From positions 5,315-69,314 of the forward strand of contig JAJDNL010000133.1 of assembly GCA_022340745.1 (NCBI GenBank): a stretch of 64,000 nucleotides of DNA, in the 5' to 3' direction. The first letter of the stretch is position 1, and each line of letters begins with the position of its first letter. The DNA comes from Deltaproteobacteria bacterium. GTDB lineage: Bacteria; Desulfobacterota; Syntrophobacteria; BM002. Under the pieces are notes generated by a model. It was not told the origin of the DNA, ran no database searches, and saw nothing but the letters and a program-made list of their open reading frames with translations. Position numbers and translations under genes: made by a program. Below are positions 8,435 through 64,000 of the stretch, one piece after another.

Positions 8435-8605
8435 GGTCTCAGCCTTCCGTTTAGCCCATCAGAACCATAATCTTGAAAGGTAGTGGTCAGTACAAAGTAT
8501 GAGCCTGCTCAATGTAACTCACTACGTGCCGGTCCAATCAATGATGGAAACAAGCAAAGAGCATGCCAGCCAGATGGCAAAATCTCATGGTTCGGGAAGC
8601 TTTGA

Positions 8606-12700: not shown

Positions 12701-12731
12701 TTTATTAGTCCACCCATGCAACCATTATTAC

Positions 12732-13340: not shown

Positions 13341-13343
13341 CTC

Positions 13344-14345
13344 CTACCTCCCCAAATCCACAATCACTCTCCCTTTCTGCTTTCCAGCCAGGATGCGATC
13401 TATTTCGGAGTCCAGCTCTTCTAAGGAGCACACGGAAGTCTGCCTATCCAGGTTGTCCAGTTTCCACTCACTGGCAATTTTTTCCCATGTTCGGCGCCGA
13501 AAGGTCATTGGAAAGCTCTGGGAATCAATGCCCACAAGAGAGATACCCCTCAAGATGAAGGGATAGACGTTAATATGCAAGTCAGGCGATGCCACATTGC
13601 CGCAGCAGGTAACCGCGCCGTGGAGTTTGGTGGATCTGATGGCTGTTGATAGGATCTCACCCCCTACCGCGTCTACTACCCCAGCCCAACGGCCTTTCAA
13701 AAGGGGCTTTCCCGAGGTGTCTGTCGCCTCAGCTCTGGAGATGACTTCTTTGGCGCCAAGATCGACAAGAAACTGCTTCTCATCCATCTTTCCGGTTACT
13801 GCAATCACTTGATAGCCTATTCTGGCAAGCATTGCCACGGCAAAACTCCCAACTCCACCGGTGGCTCCTGTAACCAATATCTCTCCCTGATCGGGAGTGA
13901 TGCCATGCTCTTGGAGCTTAAAGATGCAAAATCCGGCCGTAAGACCGGCTGAACCATATGCCATGCTTTCTTTTGGTGAGAGATTCTCCGGAAGCGGCAC
14001 CACCCAACCGGCCGGTACTCTAATGTATTGTCCAAAACCACCTGGGGTGTTCATACCAAGATCATAACTGGTGACAATTACCTGGTCCCCAGGCTGAAAC
14101 GCTTCACTATGGCTTTCTTCTACAACACCGGCGGCATCTACTCCCGGCGTGTGTGGATAATGCTTGGTGACCCCCCTGTGACCAGTGGCTGAAAGTCCGT
14201 CTTTGTAATTTAGTGATGAATAGTGAACCCGGATCAATACTTCACCTGCTGGCAAATCATCCAGTGATTTCTCGGCAATCCGCCTGGTATATGTGCCAGC
14301 CGCTGTTTCTTGCACTACCATGGCTTTGAAAGGTTTACTGTCCAT
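13344..14345 (-). CDS. YhdH/YhfP-family MDR quinone oxidoreductase (AcuI-like)
   Basis: 333 aa. ..GEVLIRVHYSSLNYKDGLS.. and a GG..G Rossmann motif, typical of the YhdH family. Confidence 0.75.
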   Translation of the reverse strand: MDSKPFKAMVVQETAAGTYTRRIAEKSLDDLPAGEVLIRVHYSSLNYKDGLSATGHRGVTKHYPHTPGVDAAGVVEESHSEAFQPGDQVIVTSYDLGMNTPGGFGQYIRVPAGWVVPLPENLSPKESMAYGSAGLTAGFCIFKLQEHGITPDQGEILVTGATGGVGSFAVAMLARIGYQVIAVTGKMDEKQFLVDLGAKEVISRAEATDTSGKPLLKGRWAGVVDAVGGEILSTAIRSTKLHGAVTCCGNVASPDLHINVYPFILRGISLVGIDSQSFPMTFRRRTWEKIASEWKLDNLDRQTSVCSLEELDSEIDRILAGKQKGRVIVDLGR

Positions 14346-24851: not shown

Positions 24852-25316
24852 ATGGGTGGATTTTCTGCAATTAGCGTTGGCAATGGCTGGCTGATCGCTG
24901 CCCTGGGAATCTCTGTGGTTTTTTTCGGGCTTGCAGCCCTCGCGTTTATTATCACCTATTTCCCTCGGGCAATCCGCTGGTGGAATGACCATGCTGAAAA
25001 ACCCAAATATACCATTGAACTGCTGAGGAGTCTTTTCAGCAAGCGCGAGACCGAGACACCCATAAGCGCAGATACTGGGGAGGGCCATGGACCTGGCGGA
25101 CTCGATGACGTAGAAGAAGCTCTGCGCTTGCTCACTACTCATATGAAGGAGCCATTCAAGCTTCCCCGGCTTATTGAGGTGGCCGAGCAGCGAGGACTGG
25201 CCAGGGTTCACTCAACCATTAATCGTTTACTTGTAAAGGGCACGATGGTCGGTGAGACAGATGGCCTGTTCCGCTGGGCAAAGGGAAGCAAGAAGGAGGG
25301 AAATCCGCATAGTTAA
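24852..25316 (+). CDS. small membrane protein, possible OadG-like gamma subunit
   Basis: 154 aa. Single N-terminal TM helix (LIAALGISVVFFGLAALAFIITYF) immediately upstream of oadB. Confidence 0.3.
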   Translation: MGGFSAISVGNGWLIAALGISVVFFGLAALAFIITYFPRAIRWWNDHAEKPKYTIELLRSLFSKRETETPISADTGEGHGPGGLDDVEEALRLLTTHMKEPFKLPRLIEVAEQRGLARVHSTINRLLVKGTMVGETDGLFRWAKGSKKEGNPHS

Positions 25317-25665
25317 CGAGGGTTCGGCACAGCCTCAAAAAGATATAAAGGTGGTACCACTGAGACAGAGAAGAGTAGCTGCACTCAAATTCGAAATCCG
25401 AATTCCGAAGCACGAAATGGTTCGACAAGCCGTTCGACAGGCTCACGGTCCTGAGCGGAGTCGAAGGACTCACCACCCTGAGCCAAGTCGAAGGGCAAAT
25501 ACAAAATCCTAATGTTTAAATGTTCAAAACGTGACCACTCTCTCAGAATTATCTGGCGTTTCTGTCATTTGAATTTTGGGAATTCGAATTTGTTTCGGAT
25601 TTAGATATTCGAATTTCGGATTTAACCAACTCTTTGATGAACGAAGAAAGAAAACAAGGATTGTT

Positions 25666-26790
25666 ATGGAGCTCCTAATAGACTTTTTTCAAAATACCGG
25701 TTTTGGTATGGCTGACTATCGCCACTTTGTCATGATCGGTGTGGGGCTAATCTTCATTTATCTCGGTATTGCCAAACATTACGAACCGCTGCTTTTGGTC
25801 CCCATTGGCTTCGGTATTCTGGTTGGTAACGTCCCGGTTTTCAAAGGTCTGGGCCTGGGCATCTATGAGAAAGGTTCGGTGCTCAACTACCTCTACTTTG
25901 GAGTGAGCCAGGGTATTTATCCTCCGTTGATCTTTTTGGGTATCGGTGCCATGACAGATTTCTCCACACTTCTGGCCAGGCCAAAACTCATTTTGCTGGG
26001 GGCAGCTGCGCAACTAGGTGTTTTTATGACATTTTTAGGGGCTCTATTTCTGGGTTTTGTTCAAAGAGAGGCAGCGTCTATAGGCATCATTGGAGGTGCA
26101 GACGGCCCTACCGCCATCTTTTTGTCGGCCAAGTTGGCACCGCACCTGGTAGGACCCATTGCCATCGCAGCCTATTCATATATGGCCTTGGTGCCGGTTA
26201 TCCAGCCACCCATTATGAGACTGCTCACCAGCCGAGAAGAACGTCTCATCAAAATGAGTGATCCCAGAGAGGTGAGTTCGCAAGAGAAGATCCTCTTCCC
26301 CATCGTGGGCTTCTTGTTTTGCTGCTTCTTGGCGCCTGCCGCCCTGCCATTGCTTGGCATGCTCTTTTTTGGCAATCTTTTAAAGGAATGTCTGGTTACC
26401 GACCGGTTGGCGAGAACTGCCAGAACTGCTGTGGTTGATACAGTAACAATTGTTCTCGGGCTCACCGTAGGTGCCAGCACCCAGGCTGATGTATTTCTTA
26501 CTGCCAAGTCCGTAGGTATCTTTATCCTTGGCGCCTGCTCCTTCATGGTGGCCACGGCAGGTGGGGTGCTTTTTGCGAAACTGATGAACTTTTTTAGCCG
26601 CGACAAAATTAACCCTCTGCTCGGTGCAGCCGGAGTGTCGGCGGTGCCGGACTCGGCCCGAGTAGTGCAAATGGTAGGCAACGCAGAGGATCCGAGTAAC
26701 TATCTGCTCATGCACGCCATGGCGCCAAATGTTGCGGGGGTTATCGGTTCTGCCATAGCCGCCGGTGTTCTCTGGAGTTTCATTGGTTGA
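25666..26790 (+). CDS. oadB: sodium ion-translocating decarboxylase beta subunit (OadB/GcdB/MmdB family)
   Basis: MELLIDFFQNTGF..HFVMIGVGLIFIYLGIAKHYEPLLLVPIGFG.. is the hallmark OadB N-terminus. Multi-TM. SD AAGGA before ATG 25666. Confidence 0.8.
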   Translation: MELLIDFFQNTGFGMADYRHFVMIGVGLIFIYLGIAKHYEPLLLVPIGFGILVGNVPVFKGLGLGIYEKGSVLNYLYFGVSQGIYPPLIFLGIGAMTDFSTLLARPKLILLGAAAQLGVFMTFLGALFLGFVQREAASIGIIGGADGPTAIFLSAKLAPHLVGPIAIAAYSYMALVPVIQPPIMRLLTSREERLIKMSDPREVSSQEKILFPIVGFLFCCFLAPAALPLLGMLFFGNLLKECLVTDRLARTARTAVVDTVTIVLGLTVGASTQADVFLTAKSVGIFILGACSFMVATAGGVLFAKLMNFFSRDKINPLLGAAGVSAVPDSARVVQMVGNAEDPSNYLLMHAMAPNVAGVIGSAIAAGVLWSFIG

Positions 26791-29799: not shown

Positions 29800-30056
29800 G
29801 TCTTGATCAATACACTATTTTGTCAGGCCAATCCAAGGGTTTTCATATTTAAAAGCAAGAAGACAGGAGACAGGAGACAGGAGTCAGGAGTCAGAATGAA
29901 AAATCAAATAGCGAATACCTCTTTTCTACTGACTACTGGCTATTTAGTTTCTTCGTTTTGCCTCCAACCTAAAGCGCAGCGCTCCTCCAACCTCCAACCC
30001 TATGCTCTATGCTTCTTGCCGTGTGCCTTCAAAGCTGACAGCTTCGAAATTTGCCC

Positions 30057-30085
30057 TTGACAAAAACATTCGTCCCAGCTACTAT
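30057..30085 (+). promoter_or_regulatory. sigma-70 promoter for fur
   Basis: TTGACA (30057-62), 17-nt spacer, TACTAT (30080-85), 27 nt before ATG 30113. Confidence 0.5.
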
Positions 30086-30112
30086 CGCAAATCGTTCTCA
30101 ATAAGGATCAAC

Positions 30113-30547
30113 ATGAAAAGTGAAATTGAGGTATTCAGAGAATTCATTCGCAATAAGGGTTTAAGAAAAACACCCGAGCGTGAACAGGTTGTCAGAGCGG
30201 TATTTGCCATCCACGACCATTTTGACGTGGATGAACTTTACGTGCTACTCCGGCGCGAGAACGAGAAAATCTCCAAAGCTACGATTTACCGTACTATTCC
30301 CCTGCTGCTTGAGAGCGGCCTCATCCAGGAAGCCTACTTCGAGGATGGGCATCTGCATTACGAACATATCTATGGGCATGAGCACCACTGCCACCTTCGT
30401 TGTCTAGAATGTGGTCAAATTATTGAATTTACAGAAGAAATTGTCAGAGATGTAGAGGAAAAGGTCGGTGAGCGTTATGATTTTCTTGTAACTGGACACA
30501 AACTCGAAGTGTATGGGCATTGTGTCAAATGTAAGGTGCACAGGTGA
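30113..30547 (+). CDS. fur: Fur-family transcriptional regulator
   Basis: 144 aa. ..KGLRKTPEREQVVRAVF..HHCHLRCLECGQIIEF..HKLEVYGHCVKC.. Confidence 0.8.
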   Translation: MKSEIEVFREFIRNKGLRKTPEREQVVRAVFAIHDHFDVDELYVLLRRENEKISKATIYRTIPLLLESGLIQEAYFEDGHLHYEHIYGHEHHCHLRCLECGQIIEFTEEIVRDVEEKVGERYDFLVTGHKLEVYGHCVKCKVHR

Positions 30548-30621
30548 GTAACAGCGCAAATGGCAAAAGTGTGCGACAGATTCGCGACGAAATGGTGCTT
30601 AGATAAGGGAGTCGAGGCTCG

Positions 30622-31320
30622 ATGGAACGGTTACACCAATACGAGAAAGATGAATTCATCCACATCTGCAAAGAGCATGGCCTGAACTATAGCGATAAGA
30701 GGTTGCTGGTGCTCGAGGCATTCTTGGGGACAACAGAGCACCTCACTGTTGCCGCTATCAAGGAGGAGCTCGAAAGCCAAGGCCAGCAATTGGCCAGCGA
30801 CTTTATTGGCGAGACCTTGGATCTTCTCTGCCGCTATGGCTATGCTTACAAGACGGAATTTGAGGGCCAGGAGGTCCAGTATGAACATCGCCACATAGGT
30901 TGGCATCATGACCATCTCATATGCGCCGACTGCGGCAAAATTCAGGAGTTCCACAACAGAGAGATTGAAGCATTGCAGCGACAAATCGCCCAGGATAGAT
31001 ATTTTACCTTGCTGCATCATAAAATGGAGCTCTACGGCATTTGTGGAGAGTGCCGGAAACAGCGGCGACCTGGTATTCCTTTATCTTATGTACTTCCTGG
31101 AGAGGAAGTTGTTATCGAGCGATTGCTCGGTGGGAAACAGGTTCAACAGCGATTGGCTGACATGGGACTTATCCCCGGAACAACTGTAGAAGTTATAAAA
31201 GCAAGCGGACCCGGCCCTATCATCGTTGCCTTCCGAGGCAGCAGAATCGCCCTGGGGCGCGGCCTCAGCCAGAAAGTGCTCGTCTCTACCAATAACAACC
31301 CTGCCAAAGACACTGGCTGA
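30622..31320 (+). CDS. Fur-family regulator fused to C-terminal FeoA domain
   Basis: 232 aa in one uninterrupted ORF. Fur core (..HDHLICADCGKIQEF..HKMELYGICGEC..) followed by LSYVLPGEEVVIERLLGGKQVQQRLADMGLIPGTTVEVIKASGPGPIIVAFRGSRIALGRGLSQKVLV, a FeoA SH3-like domain. Confidence 0.7.
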   Translation: MERLHQYEKDEFIHICKEHGLNYSDKRLLVLEAFLGTTEHLTVAAIKEELESQGQQLASDFIGETLDLLCRYGYAYKTEFEGQEVQYEHRHIGWHHDHLICADCGKIQEFHNREIEALQRQIAQDRYFTLLHHKMELYGICGECRKQRRPGIPLSYVLPGEEVVIERLLGGKQVQQRLADMGLIPGTTVEVIKASGPGPIIVAFRGSRIALGRGLSQKVLVSTNNNPAKDTG

Positions 31321-31416
31321 GGAGTTCCTCTCATATTGGTTCCCGGTTACAATCCTTATCATCTCTGCAGACGAGGGTGAATTTGGTGGGACACTTTATA
31401 GGTCGAATTTGGAGCT

Positions 31417-31665
31417 ATGGTGATGATTCCATTGAGTGAGTTCAAAGAAGGTGAGCGAGGTGTGATCAGACAATTGAACGGCAGTGGCACCTTTCGCAAG
31501 AGACTGCAGGAGATGGGCTTTATCAGGGGATCTGAGGTATTCGTTGAAAAATATGCTCCTCTGCGAGATCCAATTGAACTGGTGATCAAAGGCTACCACG
31601 TGTCGCTACGGATGGATGAGGCGTCCCAGATAATGATGGAAAAGCTGGAGCAAGAACAAAAGTGA
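31417..31665 (+). CDS. feoA: FeoA-family protein
   Basis: 82 aa. ..LSEFKEGERGVIRQLNGSGTFRKRLQEMGFIRGSEVFV.. Confidence 0.8.
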   Translation: MVMIPLSEFKEGERGVIRQLNGSGTFRKRLQEMGFIRGSEVFVEKYAPLRDPIELVIKGYHVSLRMDEASQIMMEKLEQEQK

Positions 31666-33845
31666 AGAAAGAAACCATTACTGTTGCCCTGACCGGCAAC
31701 CCGAACTCTGGCAAGACCACCATTTTCAATAATCTTACAGGTACTCGCCAGCATGTGGGAAACTGGCCGGGGGTGACGGTAGAGAAGAAGATGGGAACCG
31801 TGCTCCATAACGACCACCGGTTGCAGGTGGTTGACCTGCCGGGGACTTACAGTCTTACCGCATATTCCATCGAAGAAATCGTGGCCCGCAGTTTTCTGGT
31901 TGACTCGAAGCCGGATGTGGTTGTGGATATTGTGGATGCCTCCAATCTGGAGAGAAATCTCTACCTCGCCACCCAGCTTATAGAGATGGGGGTAAAGCTT
32001 ATTCTGGCCCTTAACATGGCTGATGTGGCCCAGTCACGCGGCCACCAGATTGACGCTGAGAGTCTGGGTACTCTCCTGGGTGTGCCTGTGGTTTTCACTA
32101 TCGGTACCAAGAATCAGGGGATGAAGGAACTACTGGACAAAGTGCTGGAAGTGGTGGAGGACAGGGATACGGTGAGCCGGCACATCCACATTTCTTACGG
32201 CCACGAGATGGAGAAAGAGATCAAGAAGATCCAGGACGTTATCTGGAAGGATCCCTCAGTTGGCGAGCGCTTTTCAACCCGCTGGTTGGCCGTGAAATTG
32301 TTGGAAAATGATGCAGCCGTGCAAGAGAGGGTACGATCGTTCGGGGAGATCGGCGAAGAAATTTTGGCTCAAGCTGAGGCGAGTCGCGAGCGGTTGGTTG
32401 AGTTTTATAAGGACGACGCTGAAATGGTACTCACAGACCAGCGTTATGGCTTTATTGGGGGGGCTCTCAAGGAGGTCCTTAAAGTCTCCACCAAAAGCAA
32501 ACTTGATCTCTCCAGGCAGGTAGATCTGTTTCTTACCAATAGGATTCTGGGTTTTCCCGTCTTCATTTTCTTCATCTGGGCCATGTTTCAGCTGACCTTT
32601 ACCGTGGGGGCCTATCCAATGGAATGGATAGACGCCGGGGTGACCTGGCTCGGGGCCGTTGTGACTGCGCTGCTGCCGGCGGGACTCCTACAGGACCTAC
32701 TGGTCAACGGCATCATAGCCGGAGTGGGTAGTGTAATTATTTTCTTGCCCAACATTTTGATTCTTTTTTTCTGTATTGCCGTGTTTGAGGATACAGGCTA
32801 CTTGGCGAGAGCCGCCTTTATCATGGACAGGGTAATGCATGTCATTGGTCTGCACGGCAAGTCGTTTATTCCCCTGCTCATGGGTTTTGGTTGCAACGCT
32901 CCGGCGATCATGGCTACTCGCACCCTCGAAAGCGAGCGTGATCGGTTGCTGAGCATCCTGATCAACCCTCTGATCAGTTGCTCAGCCCGATTACCCGTGT
33001 ATATACTGCTGGCCGGCACATTTTTCGGAGCCAGTGCTGGCAACGTCATCTTCAGTATCTATGGGCTCGGCATTGCTCTGGCCATAGCCATGGGCAAGCT
33101 CTTCAGTGTGACTCTTTTTCGGGGTGACATCGCTCCCTTTGTAATGGAACTTCCCCCCTATCGGGCGCCAACATTGAAGAGTTTGCTGATTCACATGTGG
33201 GATCGCAGTCAGATTTTCTTGCGTAAAATGAGTGGAGTGATCCTGGTAGGTTCCATCCTGGTCTGGGTCCTCAGCAGTTTCCCACGAAGCCCCGATCTGC
33301 TCCGGGGCCAGGCTGTGGAGACAGGGGCCACGAGTGCCACCCAGGAACGGGTGCTCACCGCTGCTGAATCCCAACGATCAGCGTCGGCCTCGATGGTGGA
33401 CGAGAATCTGAAGAGTTCGGTAGCAAACATTGAAATGGCAAGGCTGGAAAATAGCTTTCTCGGGAGGTTGGGCCATTTCATTCAACCAATCTTTGCTCCC
33501 TTGGGTTTTGACTGGCGAACGAGTGTTGCCGTGCTCACAGGATTTGTGGCAAAAGAGATTGTGGTGAGCACGCTTGGAGTATTGTATGCAGCCGGAGCCG
33601 ATGTGAACGAGGAGAGTGAAGCCTTGCGCCGGTCCTTGCGGGCCTCAGGCATGACTGCTCTCGGGGCATACACCCTCATGGCTTTTGTGCTTATTTACAT
33701 TCCGTGTTTGGCTACGGTGGCGGTGATTCGGCGCGAGACCAATTCCTGGAAGTGGACCGGGTTTAGTATTGGCTATTCTCTGGTCCTGGCATGGATGGTC
33801 TCCTTCCTAATCTATCAAGGCGGGAAGATTGCTGGGCTGGGATAG
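31662..33845 (+). CDS. feoB: ferrous iron transporter FeoB
   Basis: 727 aa. GTG start overlapping feoA TGA (GTGA). G-domain ALTGNPNSGKTTIFNNLTG, gate motifs and multi-TM region. Confidence 0.9.
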   Translation: MKKETITVALTGNPNSGKTTIFNNLTGTRQHVGNWPGVTVEKKMGTVLHNDHRLQVVDLPGTYSLTAYSIEEIVARSFLVDSKPDVVVDIVDASNLERNLYLATQLIEMGVKLILALNMADVAQSRGHQIDAESLGTLLGVPVVFTIGTKNQGMKELLDKVLEVVEDRDTVSRHIHISYGHEMEKEIKKIQDVIWKDPSVGERFSTRWLAVKLLENDAAVQERVRSFGEIGEEILAQAEASRERLVEFYKDDAEMVLTDQRYGFIGGALKEVLKVSTKSKLDLSRQVDLFLTNRILGFPVFIFFIWAMFQLTFTVGAYPMEWIDAGVTWLGAVVTALLPAGLLQDLLVNGIIAGVGSVIIFLPNILILFFCIAVFEDTGYLARAAFIMDRVMHVIGLHGKSFIPLLMGFGCNAPAIMATRTLESERDRLLSILINPLISCSARLPVYILLAGTFFGASAGNVIFSIYGLGIALAIAMGKLFSVTLFRGDIAPFVMELPPYRAPTLKSLLIHMWDRSQIFLRKMSGVILVGSILVWVLSSFPRSPDLLRGQAVETGATSATQERVLTAAESQRSASASMVDENLKSSVANIEMARLENSFLGRLGHFIQPIFAPLGFDWRTSVAVLTGFVAKEIVVSTLGVLYAAGADVNEESEALRRSLRASGMTALGAYTLMAFVLIYIPCLATVAVIRRETNSWKWTGFSIGYSLVLAWMVSFLIYQGGKIAGLG

Positions 33846-54393: not shown

Positions 54394-56139
54394 ATGGTGA
54401 AAGAGAAACCGCCTTACAGCACAAACATCTTGCACGAACAATTCAGCCAGTTGCTCGAGAACCTTGGCATCGGCGTCTTCACTGTGAATAGGGAACGGCA
54501 GATCACCTCCTTTAATGAGACGGTGGAGCGGCTTACTGGCTTCCGTGAAGAAGAAGTACTTGGAAAAAAGTGCCACGAGATCTTTTTTAGTGATCTGTGC
54601 CATGGCAGGTGCATGTACCCGCAAGAGGTTGAGCTCGAAGGCAAACCGCATGTCTTTGAGATGGATATCTCCGATCAGGAAGGCAACCTGCACCGCATAA
54701 CCAAGCTGGTCTCTCCTCTCCTTGGTAGTGAAGGACAAGTCACGGGTTGCATCGAAGTCTTCCAAGATTTCTCAGTTTACAATCAACTGCTGGACCGAAT
54801 TCGATATGACGAGCATCGGCTCAAACTCATCCTTGACAACCTCGACATTGGGATTTTTACGGTAAACCGTGGTGGGCACATAACCTCATTCAACTCAATG
54901 GCCGAGAAAATCACGGGCTACCAGCGGCAAGAGATTGTGGGCCAGCATCACGCCAAACTCACGGGTTGCGATCGGCCTGGGGAGACGTGCAGCCTGAAGG
55001 AATCAATCAGCACGGGCAAGTCCCTTGCCAACCTCCACCGTCGATTATTTACCAAGGACGGGCGCAACCTACCCATCCGGGCAAGTTTTATGGCTCTCCG
55101 TAACGAAGCGGGAAATACTATCGGTGGGCTGGAGACCTTCCAGGATCTCTCCCTAATCCAACAGCTCAACCGTGCCATAAGCAATAAGTACTCCTTCGCC
55201 GATATGATCGGCAAGGATGGAGTAATGCAACAGATATTTGAAATTCTCCCGGTGGTGGCTGAAAGTGAAGCCAATGTTCTGGTAGAAGGGCCTACGGGTA
55301 CAGGAAAGGATCTGTTGGCCAAAATTATCCATAATGCTTCACAGCGAGGAGAAAAGCCTTTCGTAAAGGTCAATTGTGCAGCCTTGCCTGATAATCTTCT
55401 GGAATCAGAGATGTTTGGCTACGTCAAAGGTGCCTTCACCGGGGCGGATAGGGACAAACCTGGCCGTTTCCAGGAGGCGGACGGCGGTAGTATTTTTCTA
55501 GATGAAATTGGTGATTTACCCCTATCCTTGCAAGCGAAACTGCTGCGAGTATTGGAAGATAAGGAATTCTACCCCCTGGGGGGGCGTGAGCTTTGCCGAG
55601 TTGACGTGCGAATCATCGCCGCCACCAACCAGGTATTAGAAGATCTGGTGCGAGAAAAACGGTTCCGAGAAGATCTTTTCTATCGTCTCAATGTGATGCA
55701 GCTGGAACTTCCGCCTTTAAAAGAACGACGGGGCGATATACCTTTGCTCATAAGTAATTTTATTAAGAAACACAATGTTACCAAAGGATCTGCGGTGTCA
55801 CGAATTGATGAAGATGCAATGGACATACTGCTGAACTACCACTATCCTGGCAACATACGAGAACTGGAAAACATCATAGAGCACGCCGGAGTGCTATGCC
55901 AGGGAGAGCTCATTGAGCGGCGGCACTTGCCAATGTATATTCAGGAAATTACGGACCACAGGGGAGTAGATAGAATTGCCAGAGCCGAAGTTACAACCAG
56001 ACGAGATCAGCGGGAGAGGGAGGTCATTGTGGAGGTGTTGAAAAAAAACCGCTGGCAACGACAGAAAGCTGCCCAGGCCCTTGGTATGGATAGAACCACG
56101 TTGTGGCGCAAGATGAAGAAGTACGATATTTCTCCTTGA
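54394..56139 (+). CDS. sigma-54-dependent transcriptional activator with two N-terminal PAS domains (no receiver domain)
   Basis: 581 aa. PAS x2. AAA+ core with GTGKDLLA Walker A, GAFTGA loop, ..GGSIFLDEIGDL.. and C-terminal Fis-type HTH. Confidence 0.9.
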   Translation: MVKEKPPYSTNILHEQFSQLLENLGIGVFTVNRERQITSFNETVERLTGFREEEVLGKKCHEIFFSDLCHGRCMYPQEVELEGKPHVFEMDISDQEGNLHRITKLVSPLLGSEGQVTGCIEVFQDFSVYNQLLDRIRYDEHRLKLILDNLDIGIFTVNRGGHITSFNSMAEKITGYQRQEIVGQHHAKLTGCDRPGETCSLKESISTGKSLANLHRRLFTKDGRNLPIRASFMALRNEAGNTIGGLETFQDLSLIQQLNRAISNKYSFADMIGKDGVMQQIFEILPVVAESEANVLVEGPTGTGKDLLAKIIHNASQRGEKPFVKVNCAALPDNLLESEMFGYVKGAFTGADRDKPGRFQEADGGSIFLDEIGDLPLSLQAKLLRVLEDKEFYPLGGRELCRVDVRIIAATNQVLEDLVREKRFREDLFYRLNVMQLELPPLKERRGDIPLLISNFIKKHNVTKGSAVSRIDEDAMDILLNYHYPGNIRELENIIEHAGVLCQGELIERRHLPMYIQEITDHRGVDRIARAEVTTRRDQREREVIVEVLKKNRWQRQKAAQALGMDRTTLWRKMKKYDISP

Positions 56140-56149
56140 TTGACCCTTG

Positions 56150-56187
56150 TTGCAAAATGTTGCAAAATATGTTGCAATACGTTGCAA
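56150..56187. promoter_or_regulatory. four phased TTGCAA palindromes, candidate enhancer (UAS) for the adjacent sigma-54 activator
   Basis: cTTGTTGCAAAATGTTGCAAAATATGTTGCAATACGTTGCAAATAG. Hexamers at 56150, 56160, 56172, 56182 (spacing 10/12/10), ~170-200 bp upstream of the -24/-12 promoter. Confidence 0.55.
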
Positions 56188-56353
56188 ATAGAAATAAGAC
56201 TAAAAGATTTATTTATTATAGCTAGTTACAAAATTTTAGTCTGTCAAACGTTGCATGGCTGCAGCAATATCCCACCCATCTTTCAACCGCCTTCCGACTT
56301 AAATCCACCTTAACTAATTGAAATAATAAACATTTGTCTCTTGAGTTCCATTA

Positions 56354-56369
56354 TGGCACAGCACTGGCA
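56354..56369 (+). promoter_or_regulatory. sigma-54 (-24/-12) promoter for the sensor kinase operon
   Basis: TGGCACagcacTGGCA: GG (56355-56) and GC (56367-68) 12 nt apart, matching the TGGCAC-N5-TTGCA consensus. 38 nt before ATG 56407 (SD AGGAGAG). Confidence 0.65.
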
Positions 56370-56406
56370 TTGCCATCTGGGCACCCATCCCCAGGAGAGT
56401 GTGCTC

Positions 56407-58741
56407 GATGGCAGCGTCACAAAACAATCAGTCCGGCCGAGAAATCCTCAAAACCGTTCGGCGAAGCCTCAGTTTCAAGCTTGGCCTTGCGGTTGGTTTG
56501 ATTTTTCTGGCTGCGGTGCTTGCACTGACTTCTTACCTTGTCTCACTCCAGGAACAGCAGTCTTTTGAGCGAATGGAGGAAAATGTCAACCAATTTAGCG
56601 ACACGGTGAAACGTGGCACCCATTACAGCATGCTCAAGAATCAGCGCGAGAGCCTACACAAAATCATCGAGGCCATAGGCGCCCAGCCGGGAGTTGAAAA
56701 CATCCGCGTATTTAACAAAGATGGCGCCATCATGTTTGCCAGCCGGAAGGAGGACATCGGCAATTATGTTGACCTGCAGGCGGAGGCCTGTTACGCCTGC
56801 CACCGTCGTGATCAACCTCTTGAACGGCTGAGCATGAGCGACCGCAACCGTACCTACCTTAGTCCAGCCAATTATCGAGTGCTAGGGGTGATCAACCCCA
56901 TCTATAACGAATCCAGTTGTTGGCAGGCTGCATGTCACTACCACCCTGAGAAACAAAAGGTTCTTGGCGTGCTGGATATTGGTCTCTCCCTTGAATCCCT
57001 TGATCAAGAAATTCTGGCCACCAAGAAAAAGATTACCTTATTTGCTGCCATAATATTTCTGCTTGTTACCGTCATTGTGGCCGGCTGCATCCTCTACTTC
57101 GTTAAGCGGCCAATTAGCCGCTTGGTCTCGGCCACCAAACAGATTGCAAGCGGCGATTACGAGCAGGAGGTGACGGCCATCACTCAGGATGAGATTGGCG
57201 ATCTGTCCCTTGCCTTCGACGAGATGCGAAGAAATATTAGGGACCAGGCCCACGCCTACCAGAAGAGCAAAGAGGAATACCAGACCCTATTCGAACAAGT
57301 CCCCTGTCAGATCAGTGTGCAAGACCGGGATTTCCGCATTATCCAAGTAAACAGAGTCTTCCAAGAGCAGTTTGGCGAGCCACTCGGGGAATACTGCTAC
57401 AGAGCCTACAAGGGCAGGGATGAGGTCTGCCCCGTCTGTGCAGTTGAAAACACATTTCAGGATGGCAAGCCCCACTCCAGCGAGGAGGTGGGGCTGAGCA
57501 AGGACGGCACCCTCGTTCACATGCTGGTTTCAACTTCTCCCATCTTCAATGAAGAGGGCGAGGTGGTGGCCGCCATAGAGATGTCGACGGACATCACCCA
57601 GGTGCGGCTGCTGGAAGAAGAATTGAAACGCTCAGAAGAAAAGTACCGCACCCTATTCAACAGTGATCCCAACCCCATCTTTGTCTTGAACTTAGAAACC
57701 TTGGAGATCCAGGATGCCAACGACCGGGCTTTAAACTTTTACGGCTACGAAAAGGGCGAGGTCCTGGGAGGAAGCTTTCTTGATCTGGCCGATCCTCAAG
57801 AGTGGGACCGACTCAGGAAAGTCTCCTGGGATAAAGAGGGCGCTATCTTTAAGGTGAAGCACCACACCAAAGACAATGACTCGATCCATGTGAACATTCG
57901 TTACTCCAGTTTAAAGGACCTGGGCCAGGATACGGTGATTGTCACCACTTCCGATGTGACCGAACGGGTAAAGAGCGAAGCGCAGCTCATCCAGGCGAGC
58001 AAAATGGCCACTTTGGGAGAGATGTCTGCCGGCGTTGCCCACGAGTTGAACCAGCCGCTTTCCGTGATCAAGACCTCTGCCAGCTTTATAGCCAAAAAGA
58101 TAGATCGGAACGAACCGGTGGATCCGGACATTCTCCGAGAACTTGCTACGGAGATGGATAGCCAGGTGGACCGTGCCTCCTTGATCATCAATCATCTCCG
58201 CCAATTTGGCCGGAAGACCGATATTCGCAAGATGCATGTCCAGCTCAACGACTGCATTCGTGGAACCTTTACCGTCCTGGGACGCCAGCTCGAAGTGCAT
58301 GGCGTCAAGGTGGAGCTGCACCTGGAAGAAGAACTCCCGTCCATTAGAGGAGACAGCAACCGATTAGAACAGGTCTTTCTCAACCTCATTATGAACGCCA
58401 GAGACGCCATGGACGAAAAGGAAGCACTGGCGGGGAAAGGGGTTGAAAAGGTCTTGGAAATCTCCTCATTCCGAGAAAATGGTGAGGTGGTGGTGACCAT
58501 ATCCGATACCGGGTTAGGCATGAGCGAAGAGGTGAAGGAAAAGATATTCGAACCTTTCTTCACCACTAAACCAGTGGGAAAGGGAACCGGGCTTGGTCTG
58601 TCCATCAGTTTTGGCATCGTCCGGGACTACGACGGCAACATAGATCTGGAAAGCGTGGAGGGGCAGGGGACTACTTTCAGGATTAGGTTTCCAGCCGTAG
58701 AGGAGGAAACCCGGGAGCCGATGGAGGTGCTTGGTGGCTGA
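56407..58741 (+). CDS. sensor histidine kinase with periplasmic CxxCH (c-type haem) motif domain, HAMP, PAS x2, HisKA, HATPase
   Basis: TM1 and TM2 flank a ~165-aa periplasmic region containing EACYACH and SSCWQAACH. Then HAMP (..IASGDYEQEV..), PAS, H-box ..MATLGEMSAGVAHELNQPL.. and ..GTGLGLSIS.. ATPase motifs. Confidence 0.85.
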
Positions 58742-60341
58742 AACTAACCTGCACCGCGTCCTTTTGGTTGACGACGAAGAGGGTATCCGCAAGGTTGTGT
58801 CAATTGCCCTTAAGGATGCCGGCTATGAGGTTTGGACTGCCGAGAATGGCGAGCAGGGTCTGGACATCTTCAGACGCCAGCAGCCACCGCTCGTTCTTAC
58901 GGATATCAAGATGCCGGGCATAGATGGCATCGAGGTTCTACGTCGCATCAAGGCAATGGAGACCGATTCCGAAGTGATAATCATCACAGGCCACGGCGAG
59001 ATGGAACTGGCCATCAGCGCCCTGCAGCTGGAGGCCTCAGATTTTATTACCAAGCCGATTCATGATGAGGCCCTGTTCATTTCTCTAAAACGCGCCGAAG
59101 AAAAAATCTTTCTCAAAAGGCAACTCCGTGACTACACGGAGAACCTTGAACAGAAGGTCCAGGAGGCTACCGCTGAAATCCAACGTATTAGCGATTTTCA
59201 GGCCAATCTCATCGACAACTCTCTGGATGGGATAGTGGCCGGAAATAAGGAGGGAGAGATTGTTATCTTCAACAGTAGCGCCCAGCTGTTGACCGGTTAT
59301 TCGGAGGAGGAGGTGGTGGACAAGCTATCTCTGGGTGATATTTATGGTCCGGAGGTAGAAGAGAAATGGCGCACCAATTGGTGCGAGCTCAACAGAAACG
59401 CAGTGGAAGAGGCTGGCACCTATTTGGACACTACCATCCGAACCCGAGAAGGAGAGCAGATTCCAATTCGACTGACAGGCGTGAGGCTCCTTCAGGCTGA
59501 TCAGGTAATGGGCTGTGTTACCTTCTTTCAAGACTTGCGCGACATTCGCCGTCTTGAAAAACAGCTGGTGCAATCAGAGCGGATGGCGGCCATCGGCCAG
59601 ACCTCAGCCACTATCGCCCATGCCATAAAGAATATTGTCGGTGGGCTGAAAGGCGGGATGTTTGTGGTCAACAAGGGCTTCGAGTTGTCAAACCAGGACT
59701 ATCTTCAGAATGGCTGGGACATGGTGCAGCGCAACGTTAGCAAGATCTCCAGCCTGGCCATGGATCTGCTCACTTACTCCAAGGAGCGCAAACCTGAATA
59801 CCGCTTGGCTCAAGTTAATGAGGTTGCTGGGGAAGTGGTGGATCTCATGAAAGCGCGGGCAGAGGAATTCAAGGTCAATCTCATTCTGGATGCCACCGAT
59901 GGGTTGGAACCGGTGGCAATGGATGTAAGCGGTATTCATCAATGTTTGGTCAATCTGGTTAGCAATGCCATTGACGCCTGCTGGCCGGAAATCTGCGGTC
60001 ATGAACGGGGGCAGGTTGTGGTGCGCACGTGCCGCCACCCGGACTGGGCAGTTTGTGTGGAGGTTGAAGATAACGGTTGCGGCATTGAGGAGGGCGACAA
60101 GGAGAAGATCTTTACCACCTTTTTCAGCACCAAAGGTGCCGATGGAACAGGACTGGGCTTGATGAACGTCCAGAAAATAGCCCGAGAACATCAAGGACGC
60201 ATGGAGGTTGAATCCGTGCTGAATAAAGGCTCGTTATTCCGCCTGCTGCTACCTTCCGGGCCAGCCGAAGAGCGGCAAAATGGCAGTGAATCTGATCTGA
60301 GAGAGAATGCAAGCCTCGAACCGCCCTCGGCAGGGGCCTAA
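58731..60341 (+). CDS. response-regulator receiver fused to PAS and histidine kinase (hybrid REC-PAS-HK)
   Basis: TTG/GTG start overlapping upstream stop by 11 nt. REC (..LLVDDEEG..LVLTDIKMPGIDG..), PAS, H-box ..AAIGQTSATIAHAIKN.., ATPase G-boxes. Confidence 0.85.
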   Translation: MVAETNLHRVLLVDDEEGIRKVVSIALKDAGYEVWTAENGEQGLDIFRRQQPPLVLTDIKMPGIDGIEVLRRIKAMETDSEVIIITGHGEMELAISALQLEASDFITKPIHDEALFISLKRAEEKIFLKRQLRDYTENLEQKVQEATAEIQRISDFQANLIDNSLDGIVAGNKEGEIVIFNSSAQLLTGYSEEEVVDKLSLGDIYGPEVEEKWRTNWCELNRNAVEEAGTYLDTTIRTREGEQIPIRLTGVRLLQADQVMGCVTFFQDLRDIRRLEKQLVQSERMAAIGQTSATIAHAIKNIVGGLKGGMFVVNKGFELSNQDYLQNGWDMVQRNVSKISSLAMDLLTYSKERKPEYRLAQVNEVAGEVVDLMKARAEEFKVNLILDATDGLEPVAMDVSGIHQCLVNLVSNAIDACWPEICGHERGQVVVRTCRHPDWAVCVEVEDNGCGIEEGDKEKIFTTFFSTKGADGTGLGLMNVQKIAREHQGRMEVESVLNKGSLFRLLLPSGPAEERQNGSESDLRENASLEPPSAGA

Positions 60342-60358: not shown

Positions 60359-60841
60359 ATGGTTAAATACAGCAACATTCTGTATTGCAGCGATTTTTCC
60401 GAAGAGTCGGAGATGGCATTCCACCATGCCGTTGACTTCTGCCAACGTTATGACGCCCGCCTTCACATAATTCACGTGCTGCACTCCGGTTACAAGTACA
60501 TGCGCCATGTAGTGAATGAATATGTGGAGGAAGGTAAAGAAGAAGACGTAGCAGATGAGGAACTTGTCGCCAAGGCAGAAACGGACCTCAAGGCACGATA
60601 TGGCGAGAAGTTAGAGGAGTGCAAGGAGGTAACCTTCGCAGCACGGGTCGGAGTTCCTTTTGTGGAGATTGTCCGTTACGCCAGAGAAAACAAGGTGGAT
60701 TTCATCGTCATGGGCGCCTCAGGGAGCTCTGAGTTGGACAAGCAAACTTTTGGCAGCACCGTGGAAAACGTCGCAAGACGGGCCCACTGTCATGTAATGG
60801 CCATCCGGAACCCAGAGATTGCCTTCAAGTTGCCCGGTTGA
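60359..60841 (+). CDS. universal stress protein (UspA family)
   Basis: ..ILYCSDFSE..ARLHIIHV..VMGASGSSELDKQTFGSTVENVARRAHCHVMAIR. SD GGAGAGGAGG. Confidence 0.85.
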   Translation: MVKYSNILYCSDFSEESEMAFHHAVDFCQRYDARLHIIHVLHSGYKYMRHVVNEYVEEGKEEDVADEELVAKAETDLKARYGEKLEECKEVTFAARVGVPFVEIVRYARENKVDFIVMGASGSSELDKQTFGSTVENVARRAHCHVMAIRNPEIAFKLPG

Positions 60842-60955: not shown

Positions 60956-61354
60956 ATGAAGAAAAAGAAAATCTTGGTGGTGGATGATGAGCTGGACATG
61001 CGGACCTTCATCACCACTCTGCTGGAGACCAGTGGCTATAAGCCGATTATTGCCGTCAACGGAGAAGAGGGCATTCTGAAAGCCCGGGAGAAAAAGCCGG
61101 CGGCAATCATTCTAGATGTGATGATGCCTCGAGAGGGCGGGATTCAAATGTATCGGGAATTGAAAACTGACGAGGAACTCAAGGATATTCCGGTGATTAT
61201 GCTCTCGGCCATAGCCAAGAAGACCTTTTTCCATTCCCAACAAGTATTGAATACCTATCGGGGACAAAAGGTGCCTGAGCCGGCGGCCTATATCGAAAAG
61301 CCTCCGGAGACCGAGGAACTTCTACAGGTGCTAGAACAATGTATCGGTTGTTAA
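60956..61354 (+). CDS. single-domain response regulator (CheY-like receiver)
   Basis: MKKKKILVVDDELDMR..AAIILDVMMPREGG.. Confidence 0.85.
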   Translation: MKKKKILVVDDELDMRTFITTLLETSGYKPIIAVNGEEGILKAREKKPAAIILDVMMPREGGIQMYRELKTDEELKDIPVIMLSAIAKKTFFHSQQVLNTYRGQKVPEPAAYIEKPPETEELLQVLEQCIGC

Positions 61355-61422: not shown

Positions 61423-64000
61423 ATGGCGGCGAAAATTGGAGTCTATATTTGTCATTGTGGAAGCAATATTGCTGGCAAGGTTGACCCTGGGGAAGTGGCA
61501 GAATTCGCCAAGGGTCTCAAGGATGTGGTGACGGCCAGGGATTACAAGTTTATGTGCTCAGATCCCGGGCAGGAGATGATCCAGGACGATATTAGGAACA
61601 TGGGACTCAACCGGGTGGTGGTGGCCTCCTGTTCCCCGAGGCTACACGAAAAGACCTTCCAGGGTGCCTGTCAGCGGGCAGGTATCAACCCTTATCTTTT
61701 CCAAATGGCTTGCATTCGTGAACACTGCTCCTGGGTCATCGAGGACAAGGATGAGGCTACCAGCAAGGCTAAAACCCTGGTGGCGGCAGCAGTAAGTCGG
61801 GTCAGTCATCATCAGAGTCTGGCGACTCGGGAAGTAGGTGTGCACCCGGATGTTTTGGTGGTAGGAGCTGGCATCGCCGGAATCCAGGCTTCCCTGGACA
61901 TTGCCAAGTCCGGCCACCAGGTCTATTTGGTAGAGAGAAACCCGTCAATTGGCGGGCACATGATGAAGTTTGACAAGACCTTTCCCACCCTGGACTGCGC
62001 CGCATGTATTTCAACACCGAAAACGGTGGCAGTGGCGCAAGAGCCTAATATTCATCTCTTTTCCTATAGTGAGGTGGCCGAGGTAGGCGGCTATGTGGGT
62101 AATTTCACTGTCAAGATCAAACGCAACGCGCGCTATGTCCGGGAGGATCAGTGTACCGGCTGTGGTCAGTGTGCTGAGGTCTGCCCGGTGTCGGTACCCA
62201 ACGAGTTTGATGAATACCTCAGCGAGCGCCAGGCCATTTATCGCTTCTTCCCCCAAGCAGTGCCCATAACCTTCTGCATTGAGAAAAAAGATCGAGCACC
62301 CTGCACCATTACCTGTCCAGCGGGCATAAACGTGCAAGGCTATGTCCAGCTCATTAAGCAGGGGAAGTATAAAGAAGCGGTCCAACTCATCATGGAGCGT
62401 TTACCCCTGCCAGGTGTTCTGGGCCGTGTCTGTCCTCACCCGTGCGAGTTCCAGTGTCGTAGGGCGGAGATGGATGAGGCCATTGCCATAAGGGACTTGA
62501 AGCGCTTTGCCGCTGACCAGGTAGATTTGGAAGCTCTGCCCTTGCCTGAAATCGAGGAAAAGCAGGAAAGAGTGGCGGTGGTGGGCTCGGGCCCCGCGGG
62601 ATTGACTGTGGCCTACGATCTGCGGCTCAAGGGTTATCAAGTCACCATCTTTGAAGCGCTCCCGGTGTTGGGCGGCATGCTGCGTGTGGGCATTCCCGAC
62701 TACAGGCTGCCTCCAGAGATTTTGGACCGAGAAATCCAGAACATTCTCAGGTTGGGCATCGACACTCAGACCGACAAGAGACTGGGATTCGATTTCACTC
62801 TGGATGACTTGAGGGAACAAGGTTACAAAGCTATTTTTCTGGGCATCGGTGCCCACCGAAGTTTGAAGCTGGGCATAAGTGGCGAGGAAGATTTCGAGGA
62901 CGTCCTGGATGCAGTGGATTTCCTTCGGGAGGTGAATCTCGGCGATCGGCAAAAGCCGGGTAGCCGGGTGGTCGTTGTTGGCGGGGGCAACGTGGCCATT
63001 GATGCTGCCAGAGGGGCGTTGCGACTCGGCTGTGAGCAAGTGGACATTGTCTACCGGCGAAGTCGCGAGGAGATGCCCGCCTATGCAGAAGAGATTGAGG
63101 GTGCTTTGTCCGAGGGAGTGAAGATCCACTATCTCACAGCACCTATGCGCATTGTGGGCGAAAACGGCAGGGTTACCGGATTTGAGTGTCTCCGAACCGA
63201 ACTGGGGCCACCGGATGAAAGCGGCAGGCGAAGGCCGGTGCCGGTGGAAGGCTCGGAGTTCATCATAGATTGCGACGCGGTCATACCGGCTATTGGCCAG
63301 CAGCCCGAGGTAGATTGGACTGTGGATCAGACTGATCTCGAGATCACCCGCCGGAACACATTAGTGGTAAGTCCAAACACCATGCAAACTGCTATCCCTG
63401 ATGTCTTTGGTGCTGGCGACGCGGTGAGCGGTCCGGCAACGGTAATAGAGGCGGTGGCTGCAGGTCATAAAGCGGCGGAAGCCATGCATCGCTACATTAA
63501 CGGGGAAGATCTCGACCTCTTGGCTGAAGAGTTGGTAGCCAAGGAGCCACCGGGGCAGGACTGGCAGGAGATTCCTGAAGATGCTGTCCCAGAGTCCAGG
63601 GCTCATCTGGCTCATCGGGATCCTCAGGAAAGCGCTTCTTCCTTTGACGAGGTAGCCCTGGGATTCAGCGAGGATGAAGCACAGCGGGAGGCGAGCCGCT
63701 GCATTAATTGTGGGATCTGCTGTGAGTGCATGGAGTGTGTTAGGGCCTGTGAAAGAGATGCGGTTGACCACCAAATGATTGAGGAAGAGGTCGAGATAAA
63801 GGTGGGTAGCATCGTCATGGCCACGGGATTCCAAACCCTGGACCCCACTCCAATGAAGCAATACGGGTACGGAGAATTTGATGAGGTTTACACCGGCTTG
63901 GAGTTTGAGCGGTTAAACAACGCGGTTGGACCCACAGGTGGGCAGATCCTGATGAAGAACGGCAAGGTACCGGAAAGCGTTGGCATCTTTCACTGTGTAG
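61423..64000 (+). CDS. hdrA: HdrA-like FAD/FeS flavoprotein with inserted GltD/NfnB-like NAD(P)H-binding domain (partial, continues beyond window end)
   Basis: Open frame from ATG 61423 to the window end (verified by hand, not in ORF track). MAAKIGVYICHCGSNIAG.. Cys-cluster, ..VLVVGAGIAGIQAS.. FAD motif, 2x[4Fe4S] ferredoxin CTGCGQCAEVCP, second Rossmann ..VAVVGSGPAGL.. (GltD-like), C-terminal CINCGICCECMECVRAC. Confidence 0.8.
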   Translation, partial: MAAKIGVYICHCGSNIAGKVDPGEVAEFAKGLKDVVTARDYKFMCSDPGQEMIQDDIRNMGLNRVVVASCSPRLHEKTFQGACQRAGINPYLFQMACIREHCSWVIEDKDEATSKAKTLVAAAVSRVSHHQSLATREVGVHPDVLVVGAGIAGIQASLDIAKSGHQVYLVERNPSIGGHMMKFDKTFPTLDCAACISTPKTVAVAQEPNIHLFSYSEVAEVGGYVGNFTVKIKRNARYVREDQCTGCGQCAEVCPVSVPNEFDEYLSERQAIYRFFPQAVPITFCIEKKDRAPCTITCPAGINVQGYVQLIKQGKYKEAVQLIMERLPLPGVLGRVCPHPCEFQCRRAEMDEAIAIRDLKRFAADQVDLEALPLPEIEEKQERVAVVGSGPAGLTVAYDLRLKGYQVTIFEALPVLGGMLRVGIPDYRLPPEILDREIQNILRLGIDTQTDKRLGFDFTLDDLREQGYKAIFLGIGAHRSLKLGISGEEDFEDVLDAVDFLREVNLGDRQKPGSRVVVVGGGNVAIDAARGALRLGCEQVDIVYRRSREEMPAYAEEIEGALSEGVKIHYLTAPMRIVGENGRVTGFECLRTELGPPDESGRRRPVPVEGSEFIIDCDAVIPAIGQQPEVDWTVDQTDLEITRRNTLVVSPNTMQTAIPDVFGAGDAVSGPATVIEAVAAGHKAAEAMHRYINGEDLDLLAEELVAKEPPGQDWQEIPEDAVPESRAHLAHRDPQESASSFDEVALGFSEDEAQREASRCINCGICCECMECVRACERDAVDHQMIEEEVEIKVGSIVMATGFQTLDPTPMKQYGYGEFDEVYTGLEFERLNNAVGPTGGQILMKNGKVPESVGIFHCV

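Follow-up and report, generated by a model that had tools for sequence, protein, structure and literature searches.

A sensor histidine kinase of Desulfobacterota with two haem c motifs in a predicted periplasmic Cache domain

We analysed a 64-kb stretch of DNA from a Deltaproteobacteria bacterium (contig JAJDNL010000133.1; 'the window' below means this whole stretch) and focus here on one of its genes, which encodes a sensor histidine kinase with two c-type haem-binding motifs, CYACH and CWQAACH, in its periplasmic part. Residues 48-208 of this kinase likely form a single Cache domain that carries two covalently bound c-type haems and provides the input of the kinase, which would make the protein a redox or gas sensor. 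The stimulus is probably the periplasmic redox state or a gas such as nitric oxide (NO). Judged from its sequence, the domain is a homologue of the haem-c sensors of Geobacter that has gained a second haem motif. By the same alignments, the CX4CH motif is the one inherited from Geobacter-type sensors and the canonical CXXCH is the added one.

Sensor kinase gene and topology

The open reading frame of the kinase lies on the forward strand, may begin with GTG at 56399 or ATG at 56408, and ends at 58741. Eight orthologous loci have their start codons in line with the ATG, and a GGAG stands ahead of it. We number the product, of 777 amino acids, from ATG 56408, and all residue numbers given here count from it; the start at 56407 given in a preliminary description of the locus was one base early. 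Pfam recognises HisKA (PF00512, E=9e-10) and HATPase_c (PF02518, E=4e-23) in the kinase core, which makes the protein a class I histidine kinase (Table 1).

Five of the first 24 residues are Lys or Arg. Since the ATP-dependent core, which follows the second predicted transmembrane helix, must be cytoplasmic, and since the N terminus is positively charged, residues 48-208 are placed in the periplasm. Hydropathy and charge bias put both Cys motifs between the two helices. The preliminary description had read the protein as a sensor kinase with periplasmic CYACH and CWQAACH motifs flanked by two transmembrane helices, and the reading frame, the topology and the conservation among homologues all bear this out.

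Conservation of the haem motifs

Homologues of the N-terminal 235 residues of the kinase were drawn from three sources: a database of 5.8 billion proteins, a set of 1.84 billion cluster representatives, and a collection with one genome per species. Conservation is given among non-gap residues of 188 homologues aligned to the family hidden Markov model. The Cys and His residues that define the two motifs are kept almost everywhere (98-100%). For the first motif, C128 and C131 are conserved at 100% and H132 at 99%; for the second, the values are 98% (C171), 99% (C176) and 99% (H177). This conservation rules out the possibility that the motifs arose by chance. The spacing of the second motif was compared among 189 sequences, with CX4CH in 169, CX3CH in 6, CX2CH in 3 and CX5CH in 1. 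Within the window, the open reading frames of at least 80 amino acids in all six frames contain only two CXXCH motifs, CYACH and one in a cytoplasmic zinc-ribbon protein.

Further residues of the periplasmic domain are nearly as constant in the same alignment. Met75 is conserved at 100% (187/187) and His179 at 94%, and we read these two residues as candidate distal haem ligands. Together with the two proximal histidines (132 and 177), they would fit one haem with His/Met and one with His/His coordination. Arg100, Arg146, Arg148 and Arg157 are conserved at 86-99%, and Asn167 at 94%. We infer that the four arginines pair with the four haem propionates.

Fold and homology of the periplasmic domain

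AlphaFold2 models built from family alignments predict a single Cache fold with confidence, with a predicted local distance difference test score (pLDDT) of 82.9 for residues 1-235, and a pLDDT of 87.9 and a predicted template modelling score of 0.83 for residues 48-208. The elements follow in the order long N-terminal helix, short helix, strands 1 and 2, a 35-residue loop with CYACH, strands 3 and 4, an 18-residue loop with CWQAACH-Y-H, strand 5, and a helix that leads into the second transmembrane helix. The CYACH loop has low pLDDT in these haem-free models and is the least confident part of both. Foldseek searches of the PDB returned the single Cache domain of WalK as the best match (target-normalised template modelling score of 0.72-0.75), and also KinD, DctB, CitA, DcuS and, at E=1.2e-3, chain 3B42_B, which is GSU0935 of Geobacter.

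A search of the PDB sequences with the sensor region as a single sequence returned NrfA matches only, which were insignificant, and family profiles were required. Compared with all PDB sequences, the family profile A3, built from 56 sequences of the periplasmic domain, had 3B42 (GSU0935, E=1.9e-7) and 3B47 (GSU0582, E=5.4e-5) as its two top matches. The profile alignment sets 'PIYNEPSC..A.CH' opposite PFPNEQRCQSCH, and CX4CH therefore occupies the site of the proven haem-binding CXXCH. In addition, Met75 lies opposite residue 26 of the 3B42 chain, which is Met60 of GSU0935 (by the offset at which His110 is His144). Strands 2 and 3 are joined by a segment that exceeds its GSU0935 counterpart by about 17 residues and holds the canonical CXXCH. 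Thus the kinship with Geobacter-type haem-c sensors, put forward earlier from the motifs, is real homology, and both the haem motif and the distal Met line up in these matches.

All Pfam Cache matches to this protein (dCache_1, sCache_4 and sCache_3_2) are below threshold, and NCBIfam has no model for the sensor region. PF21563, the Pfam family of the Geobacter domains, gives sub-threshold matches in 29 of 30 family members (best E=2.4e-7), and it is listed for some members in the stored Pfam scores of the protein database.

A separate observation concerns kinase residues ~73-141 (window ~56624-56830), around CYACH, where the family profile finds a weak likeness to a haem-binding stretch of NrfA (1FS7/1FS9, E~0.002). 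This likeness echoes the idea, reportedly already published, that the haem motifs of Cache domains derived from cytochrome fragments.

Relation to known haem-c sensors

GSU0582 and GSU0935 each carry one haem c, which is high-spin when oxidised and becomes low-spin on reduction through ligation by Met60, and which binds NO and carbon monoxide (CO) reversibly (PMC8396549). The haem of these domains, lodged between the sheet and the N-terminal helices, is what does the sensing (PMC8396549). The domain studied here shares with them (3B42, 3B47; PF21563) a periplasmic PAS-like or Cache fold that is set between two transmembrane helices and followed by HAMP, a haem motif placed just ahead of the last strand and after a common 'P-x-x-NE' context, and a distal Met on the N-terminal helix (Met60 there, Met75 here). 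It differs in having CX4CH, a variant haem motif, in place of CXXCH at the shared site, an extra CXXCH in the longer segment between strands 2 and 3, and a conserved His two residues past the proximal His. Moreover, the Geobacter proteins are chemoreceptors, whereas this one is a histidine kinase with two extra PAS domains.

A preprint of February 2026 groups the Geobacter sensors with DUF3365/Tll0287 proteins as sCache_heme, a class of ~20,000 sequences in which one CXXCH is 99% conserved (PMC12889525). Signalling-linked haem-Cache domains are described there as having the properties of NO sensors and not of O2 sensors, and redox roles are proposed for stand-alone domains (PMC12889525). Like the family studied here, sCache_heme domains (DUF3365/Tll0287-like, PF11845; 5B82) combine a Cache fold with a covalent c-type haem, are fused to kinases, chemoreceptors and cyclic di-GMP enzymes, are proposed to sense NO or redox state, and have a distribution rich in Gracilicutes, including Desulfobacterota (PMC12889525). 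They have one strictly conserved CXXCH, whereas the present family has two motifs and this kinase gives no PF11845 match. The terms 'two heme' and 'diheme' are absent from the text of the preprint, and no dihaem forms are mentioned in it (PMC12889525).

Two-motif sensors have been mentioned before in the literature on Geobacter and Anaeromyxobacter (2006 and 2013), in each case at the sequence level only. GSU0599 and GSU0591 of G. sulfurreducens were noted as signal transducers with two CX2-4CH motifs (PMC8396549), and Adeh_2011 and Adeh_3383 of Anaeromyxobacter were noted as Geobacter-like haem sensors with 'an additional heme-binding motif' (PMC3831638). Compared by description only, all four resemble the kinase in having two CX2-4CH motifs within one periplasmic PAS-like sensor domain, and GSU0599 is annotated as a two-component protein. 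Our literature search found no characterisation of any of the four. The family is a variant of the haem-c Cache sensors, one that was probably glimpsed earlier in the literature on these two genera and for which we found no characterisation. The same search also surfaced the perchlorate regulator PcrS and a review of NrfA regulation, neither of which is relevant here.

WalK (YycG; 4YWZ, 5IS1 and 7DUD), the best structural match, likewise has a single Cache domain between the two transmembrane helices of a histidine kinase. It differs in having no haem motifs, in lacking both insertions and in its low identity (10-13%).

Distribution and architecture of the family

Haem-c periplasmic sensors were called rare in the preliminary description, a view that the size of this family contradicts. 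A profile search returned 3,108 clusters at 50% identity at E<=1e-3, at least 1,741 at E<=1e-10 and 531 at E<=1e-30, and at least 566 loci were confirmed among species-representative genomes, in at least 566 species. The window's closest relatives among the matches listed are metagenome-assembled genomes of Syntrophobacterales (77-87% identity). Record titles name Syntrophobacterales, Desulfarculaceae, Geobacteraceae (including the metagenome-assembled genome of locus L075), Ignavibacteria, Zixibacteria, KSB1, NC10, Acidobacteriota, Gemmatimonadota, Bacteroidota, Calditrichaceae and others; genomes labelled Calditrichia and Desulfobacterota are also among the hosts. The family is common yet unannotated. 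Neither Pfam nor NCBIfam has a model that covers it, and the source databases annotate its members as generic kinases, never mentioning haem, with some homologues labelled 'sensor histidine kinase regulating citrate/malate metabolism'.

Long representatives are typically ~540 amino acids in length. Among 81 of them, 77 have a kinase core and two a GGDEF or GGDEF-EAL output, in each case after HAMP; one of the remaining two has HAMP with no output domain detected, and the other is fused to an unrelated enzyme domain. In P0123 and P0145 the same two-motif sensor domain is fused to GGDEF or PAS-GGDEF-EAL. The GGDEF/EAL fusions indicate that the sensor domain is a portable input module, used beyond kinases.

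Multihaem cytochromes are encoded next to some members. A gene for a secreted c3/c7-type multihaem cytochrome lies on the same strand and ends within 400 nucleotides upstream of the kinase gene in 19 of 80 family loci (L058, at 6825-7967, L026, L029-L031, L045, L047, L050, L055, L056, L059, L063, L066-L068, L073, L074, L076 and L078), and 14 of these 19 cytochromes have 13 CXXCH motifs and lengths of ~383-494 amino acids, most often ~390-450. Other family loci have NrfCD with c3/c7 cytochromes, or MtrA/MtrB-like genes, nearby.

A conserved gene module linked to Hdr

The kinase gene belongs to a module that recurs in 17 Desulfobacterota loci (L001-L009, L011, L012, L021, L024, L036, L043, L046 and L081; 48-87% identity), some of them on short contigs truncated part-way through it. 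As far as each contig extends, the genes come in one order, namely sigma-54 activator, kinase, REC-PAS kinase, universal stress protein, CheY-like protein and HdrL. Sixteen of the 17 loci have the activator ahead of the kinase, the seventeenth contig beginning inside the kinase gene, and the REC-PAS kinase lies directly downstream in 16, the seventeenth contig ending inside the kinase gene. The CheY-like protein is 95-96% identical in Syntrophobacterales relatives and ~60% identical in Desulfarculales. In 14 loci an HdrL gene after the CheY gene is conserved. Locus L011 (Desulfocarbo) has HdrC- and HdrB-like genes between the two (12471-13942), and other distant loci have a gap of the same size, ~1.5 kb, at this place. 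The contigs matched in a search with the CheY-like protein, which was aimed at genes beyond hdrL, were all ~5 kb or less.

Pfam and translation agree with the preliminary description as to the genes downstream: a REC-PAS-HATPase kinase, a universal stress protein, a single-domain receiver protein and an HdrA/GltD-type flavoprotein (Table 1). The link to energy metabolism that it proposed also gains support, from synteny with HdrL or with HdrC, HdrB and HdrL that holds down to ~50% identity. Syntrophobacter fumaroxidans produces the HdrABC/HdrL complex only in the presence of sulfate, and the complex is therefore regulated (PMC5947623).

In the window, the HdrL-type gene starts 69 nucleotides past the CheY-like gene, with only a weak hairpin between them; its product is 1,130 amino acids long in the close relative L003. 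We considered selenocysteine at an in-frame stop in hdrL of L003 (15147-15149) and rejected it, as the codon is TAA where the window has GAA (Glu), which points to a likely assembly error or a pseudogene.

Table 1. Positions in the window of the kinase, its parts, the intergenic elements and the neighbouring genes
Feature	Position	Strand	Evidence
Sigma-54 enhancer-binding protein, PAS-PAS-AAA+-HTH_8, no receiver domain	54394..56139	+	Pfam Sigma54_activat E=3e-69, two PAS, HTH_8
Four palindromic TTGCAA boxes, spacing 10, 12 and 10 bp; candidate activator sites	56150..56187		Sequence reading; repeat search
Inverted repeat GTTGC-N9-GCAAT (GCAAC in most relatives)	56250..56268		Nine-genome intergenic alignment; repeat search
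Predicted sigma-54-type promoter TGGCAC-AGCAC-TGGCA (GG-N10-GC), TGGCACAGCACTGGCA	56354..56369	+	Pattern match; conservation
Two-haem-motif sensor histidine kinase, 777 amino acids	56408..58741	+	Open reading frame; Pfam HAMP, two PAS, HisKA, HATPase_c; conserved start codon
Transmembrane helix 1, ~residues 25-47	56480..56548	+	Hydropathy peak; positively charged N terminus
Periplasmic single-Cache domain, residues 48-208, both haem motifs inside	56549..57031	+	AlphaFold2, Foldseek, profile against PDB sequences
Met75 codon, candidate distal ligand of second haem	56630..56632	+	Conserved in 187/187 homologues; alignment with 3B42 Met60
CYACH (C128, C131, H132), canonical haem-c motif, strand 2-3 loop	56789..56803	+	99-100% conserved
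CWQAACH-Y-H (C171, C176, H177, H179), CX4CH and downstream His	56918..56944 (CWQAACH, residues 171-177, 56918-56938)	+	Conservation; aligned with CQSCH of 3B42/3B47
Transmembrane helix 2, ~residues 209-231	57032..57100	+	Hydropathy
HAMP, residues 232-279	57101..57244	+	Pfam PF00672, E=7e-12
Cytoplasmic PAS 1, residues 289-400, four invariant Cys	57272..57607	+	Pfam PAS_9/PAS_4
Cytoplasmic PAS 2, residues 411 to ~520	57638..57967	+	Pfam PAS_8/PAS_3, TIGR00229
Kinase core: HisKA, residues 536-604 (H-box AHELNQP), and HATPase_c, residues 648-763	58013..58696	+	Pfam
REC-PAS-HATPase kinase; start overlaps stop of first kinase by 11 nucleotides	58731..60341	+	Pfam
Universal stress protein	60359..60841	+	Pfam Usp E=5e-28; syntenic
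Single-domain CheY-like response regulator	60956..61354	+	Pfam Response_reg
HdrL-type flavoprotein (HdrA-like, with inserted GltD/NfnB-like module); runs off the window	61423..64000	+	Translation; Pfam Pyr_redox_2, Fer4_20, FAD_oxidored

Promoter and upstream activator

The preliminary description placed the kinase under a sigma-54 circuit. The promoter element, TGGCAY-N5-TGGCAT, stands ~40 nucleotides ahead of the start codon and is kept in nine genomes, with the intergenic DNA around it diverged. We found nine sigma-54-like pattern matches in the window against 9.9 expected, a count not above chance, and the promoter call therefore rests on conservation across genomes. This conserved element gives sequence support to the earlier proposal and supports control of the kinase operon by sigma-54. 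Exact matches to the pattern number two in the window, the promoter at 56354-56369 and a match on the reverse strand at 8553-8568 (TGGCATGCTCTTTGCT), which lies ~120 nucleotides upstream of an open reading frame of 340 amino acids with no Pfam match (7412-8434, reverse strand).

The TTGCAA boxes start just past the stop codon of the activator gene. Their GTTGCA cores are kept in the nine genomes while the flanks diverge, the inverted repeat is kept as well, and the same alignment contains a fourth conserved element, a TTGAAAT block. The boxes and the inverted repeat are candidate upstream activator sites for the promoter at 56354-56369, which is probably driven by the adjacent PAS-containing activator. 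Since this activator has no receiver domain, it is not the phospho-partner of the kinase; the candidates for that role are the two REC-containing genes that follow the kinase in the conserved module. In other parts of the family, the gene after a short kinase encodes an NtrC-type REC-AAA+ regulator, or other REC proteins follow.

The PAS domains of the activator contain the Cys/His-rich stretches KKCHEIFFSDLCHGRC and GCDRPGETC. The activator probably responds directly to a cofactor or redox signal and not to phosphorylation. The first cytoplasmic PAS domain of the kinase has a Cys pattern of its own, VPC...GEYCY..YKGR...CP.C (residues 300-344, window 57305-57439), in which C300, C330, C341 and C344 are all kept in 16 of 16 orthologues down to ~50% identity. 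These four residues may form a metal or Fe-S site, as a second, cytoplasmic metal or redox input to the kinase.

Elsewhere the window contains an iron-uptake cluster (30002-33845) with a Fur-family gene, a Fur-FeoA fusion and FeoB, as well as genes for gamma- and beta-like subunits of a Na+-translocating oxaloacetate (or related) decarboxylase (24852-26790).

Proposed mechanism and alternatives

We propose the following route from the periplasm to the kinase core. The second haem, attached to C171 and C176 with His177 as proximal ligand, would be the homologue of the single Geobacter haem, and Met75, from the long N-terminal helix, would serve as its sixth ligand. This haem would be the switch: as in GSU0935, its Met ligation would depend on redox state and be displaced by NO or CO. 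C128 and C131, in the insertion that separates strands 2 and 3, would hold the first haem, which would have His132 as its proximal ligand and is probably low-spin His/His with His179 as distal ligand. His179 stands only two residues past His177, which would bring the two haems side by side and let electrons pass between them. The first haem would then be a relay that takes electrons from periplasmic carriers or cytochromes. Reduction or gas binding at the second haem would switch the ligation of Met75 and so move the N-terminal helix, which is continuous with the first transmembrane helix. The second transmembrane helix, HAMP and the two PAS domains would carry the signal on to the HisKA/HATPase core, and the phosphoryl group would most likely go to the receiver of the translationally coupled REC-PAS kinase, to the CheY-like protein, or to both.

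Several points weigh against a two-haem sensor domain that works in this way. Our literature search found no experimental haem in any two-motif family member, this protein included. AlphaFold cannot place haems, and both the proximity of the two haems and the assignment of His179 are matters of sequence reasoning alone. The PF21563 score of this protein is 19.1 bits, below the Pfam gathering cut-off of 27, and PF11845 does not match it even at E<=1. Cytochrome adjacency occurs in other lineages (Ignavibacteria, Bacteroidota, Calditrichaceae, NC10, Cytophagia and Chloroflexia) and not in the window. No cytochrome c maturation genes and no other cytochrome were detected by Pfam among the 37 window open reading frames scanned, a few of at least 150 amino acids at 46.5-51.6 kb being unscanned. 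Finally, the module is without a DNA-binding response regulator and its activator is without a receiver domain.

Of the alternatives, the one that survives best is a sensor with a single haem, bound only at the inherited CX4CH, in which CYACH would be a metal site or a redox-active disulfide that tunes the sensor. We consider this unlikely. It would explain why the proven haem site of 3B42 and 3B47 has its counterpart in the second motif only, and it agrees with the low model confidence of the loop around the first. However, CYACH is a canonical haem-c motif, and a disulfide switch would have no need of H132, which is almost invariant. The presence of a second candidate distal ligand, His179, and of four conserved arginines fits two haems, and the weak resemblance of the CYACH segment to a haem-binding stretch of NrfA (E=0.002) points the same way. 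Such sensors have also been counted as two-haem-motif proteins in the literature (PMC8396549, PMC3831638).

More doubtful still is the reading of the domain as an ordinary Cache receptor for a small molecule such as a carboxylate, with the ligand bound in the Cache pocket and with haems that are structural or vestigial. The residues of highest conservation are the haem motifs and the candidate haem ligands and not a carboxylate-binding set, and the insertion with the first motif takes the place of the pocket-capping segment of ordinary single Cache domains. The closest folds (WalK, KinD, DctB, CitA and DcuS) are nevertheless ligand-binding Cache domains, one family locus lies beside a DctPQM transporter, and some homologues have the citrate/malate labels mentioned above; these labels are automatic, and in the homologous Geobacter domains the haem itself is the sensor (PMC8396549). 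A role mainly in electron transfer, as a membrane-anchored dihaem cytochrome that serves multihaem cytochromes and happens to be fused to a kinase, is very improbable: the c3/c7-type cytochrome genes directly upstream in 19 of 80 loci and the redox roles proposed for stand-alone haem-Cache domains (PMC12889525) speak for it, but the domain is fused to a signalling output wherever the output is readable (a kinase core in 77 of 81 and a GGDEF-type output in 2 of 81), and response regulators follow in most loci.

Implications

It was only in 2026 that haem-c Cache sensors came to be seen as a large class, for which a single CXXCH is characteristic and a function in NO sensing is proposed (PMC12889525). 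The two-haem-motif Cache domain described here defines a sister family with a second haem motif and a modified first site. Its members lie repeatedly beside multihaem cytochrome genes, and the one described here beside Hdr genes, which suggests that strict anaerobes may read the redox state of periplasmic carriers to regulate energy-conserving complexes. To our knowledge, the regulation of such complexes in syntrophs is poorly understood.

We tentatively speculate that the two-haem Cache domain is a dedicated sensor of the periplasmic cytochrome pool, in which the His/His haem would take electrons from c3/c7 cytochromes and pass them to the His/Met switch haem, whose ligation would set the activity of the kinase, coupling this pool to the control of HdrL. 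In Syntrophobacterales and Desulfarculales, the redox poise of the carriers (of hydrogen, formate or extracellular electron transfer) would then feed a cascade from kinase to kinase to CheY, which would control a cytoplasmic, electron-confurcating complex of the HdrL type. If true, this would be a widespread and so far unannotated way for anaerobes to sense electron flow, and not a chemical.

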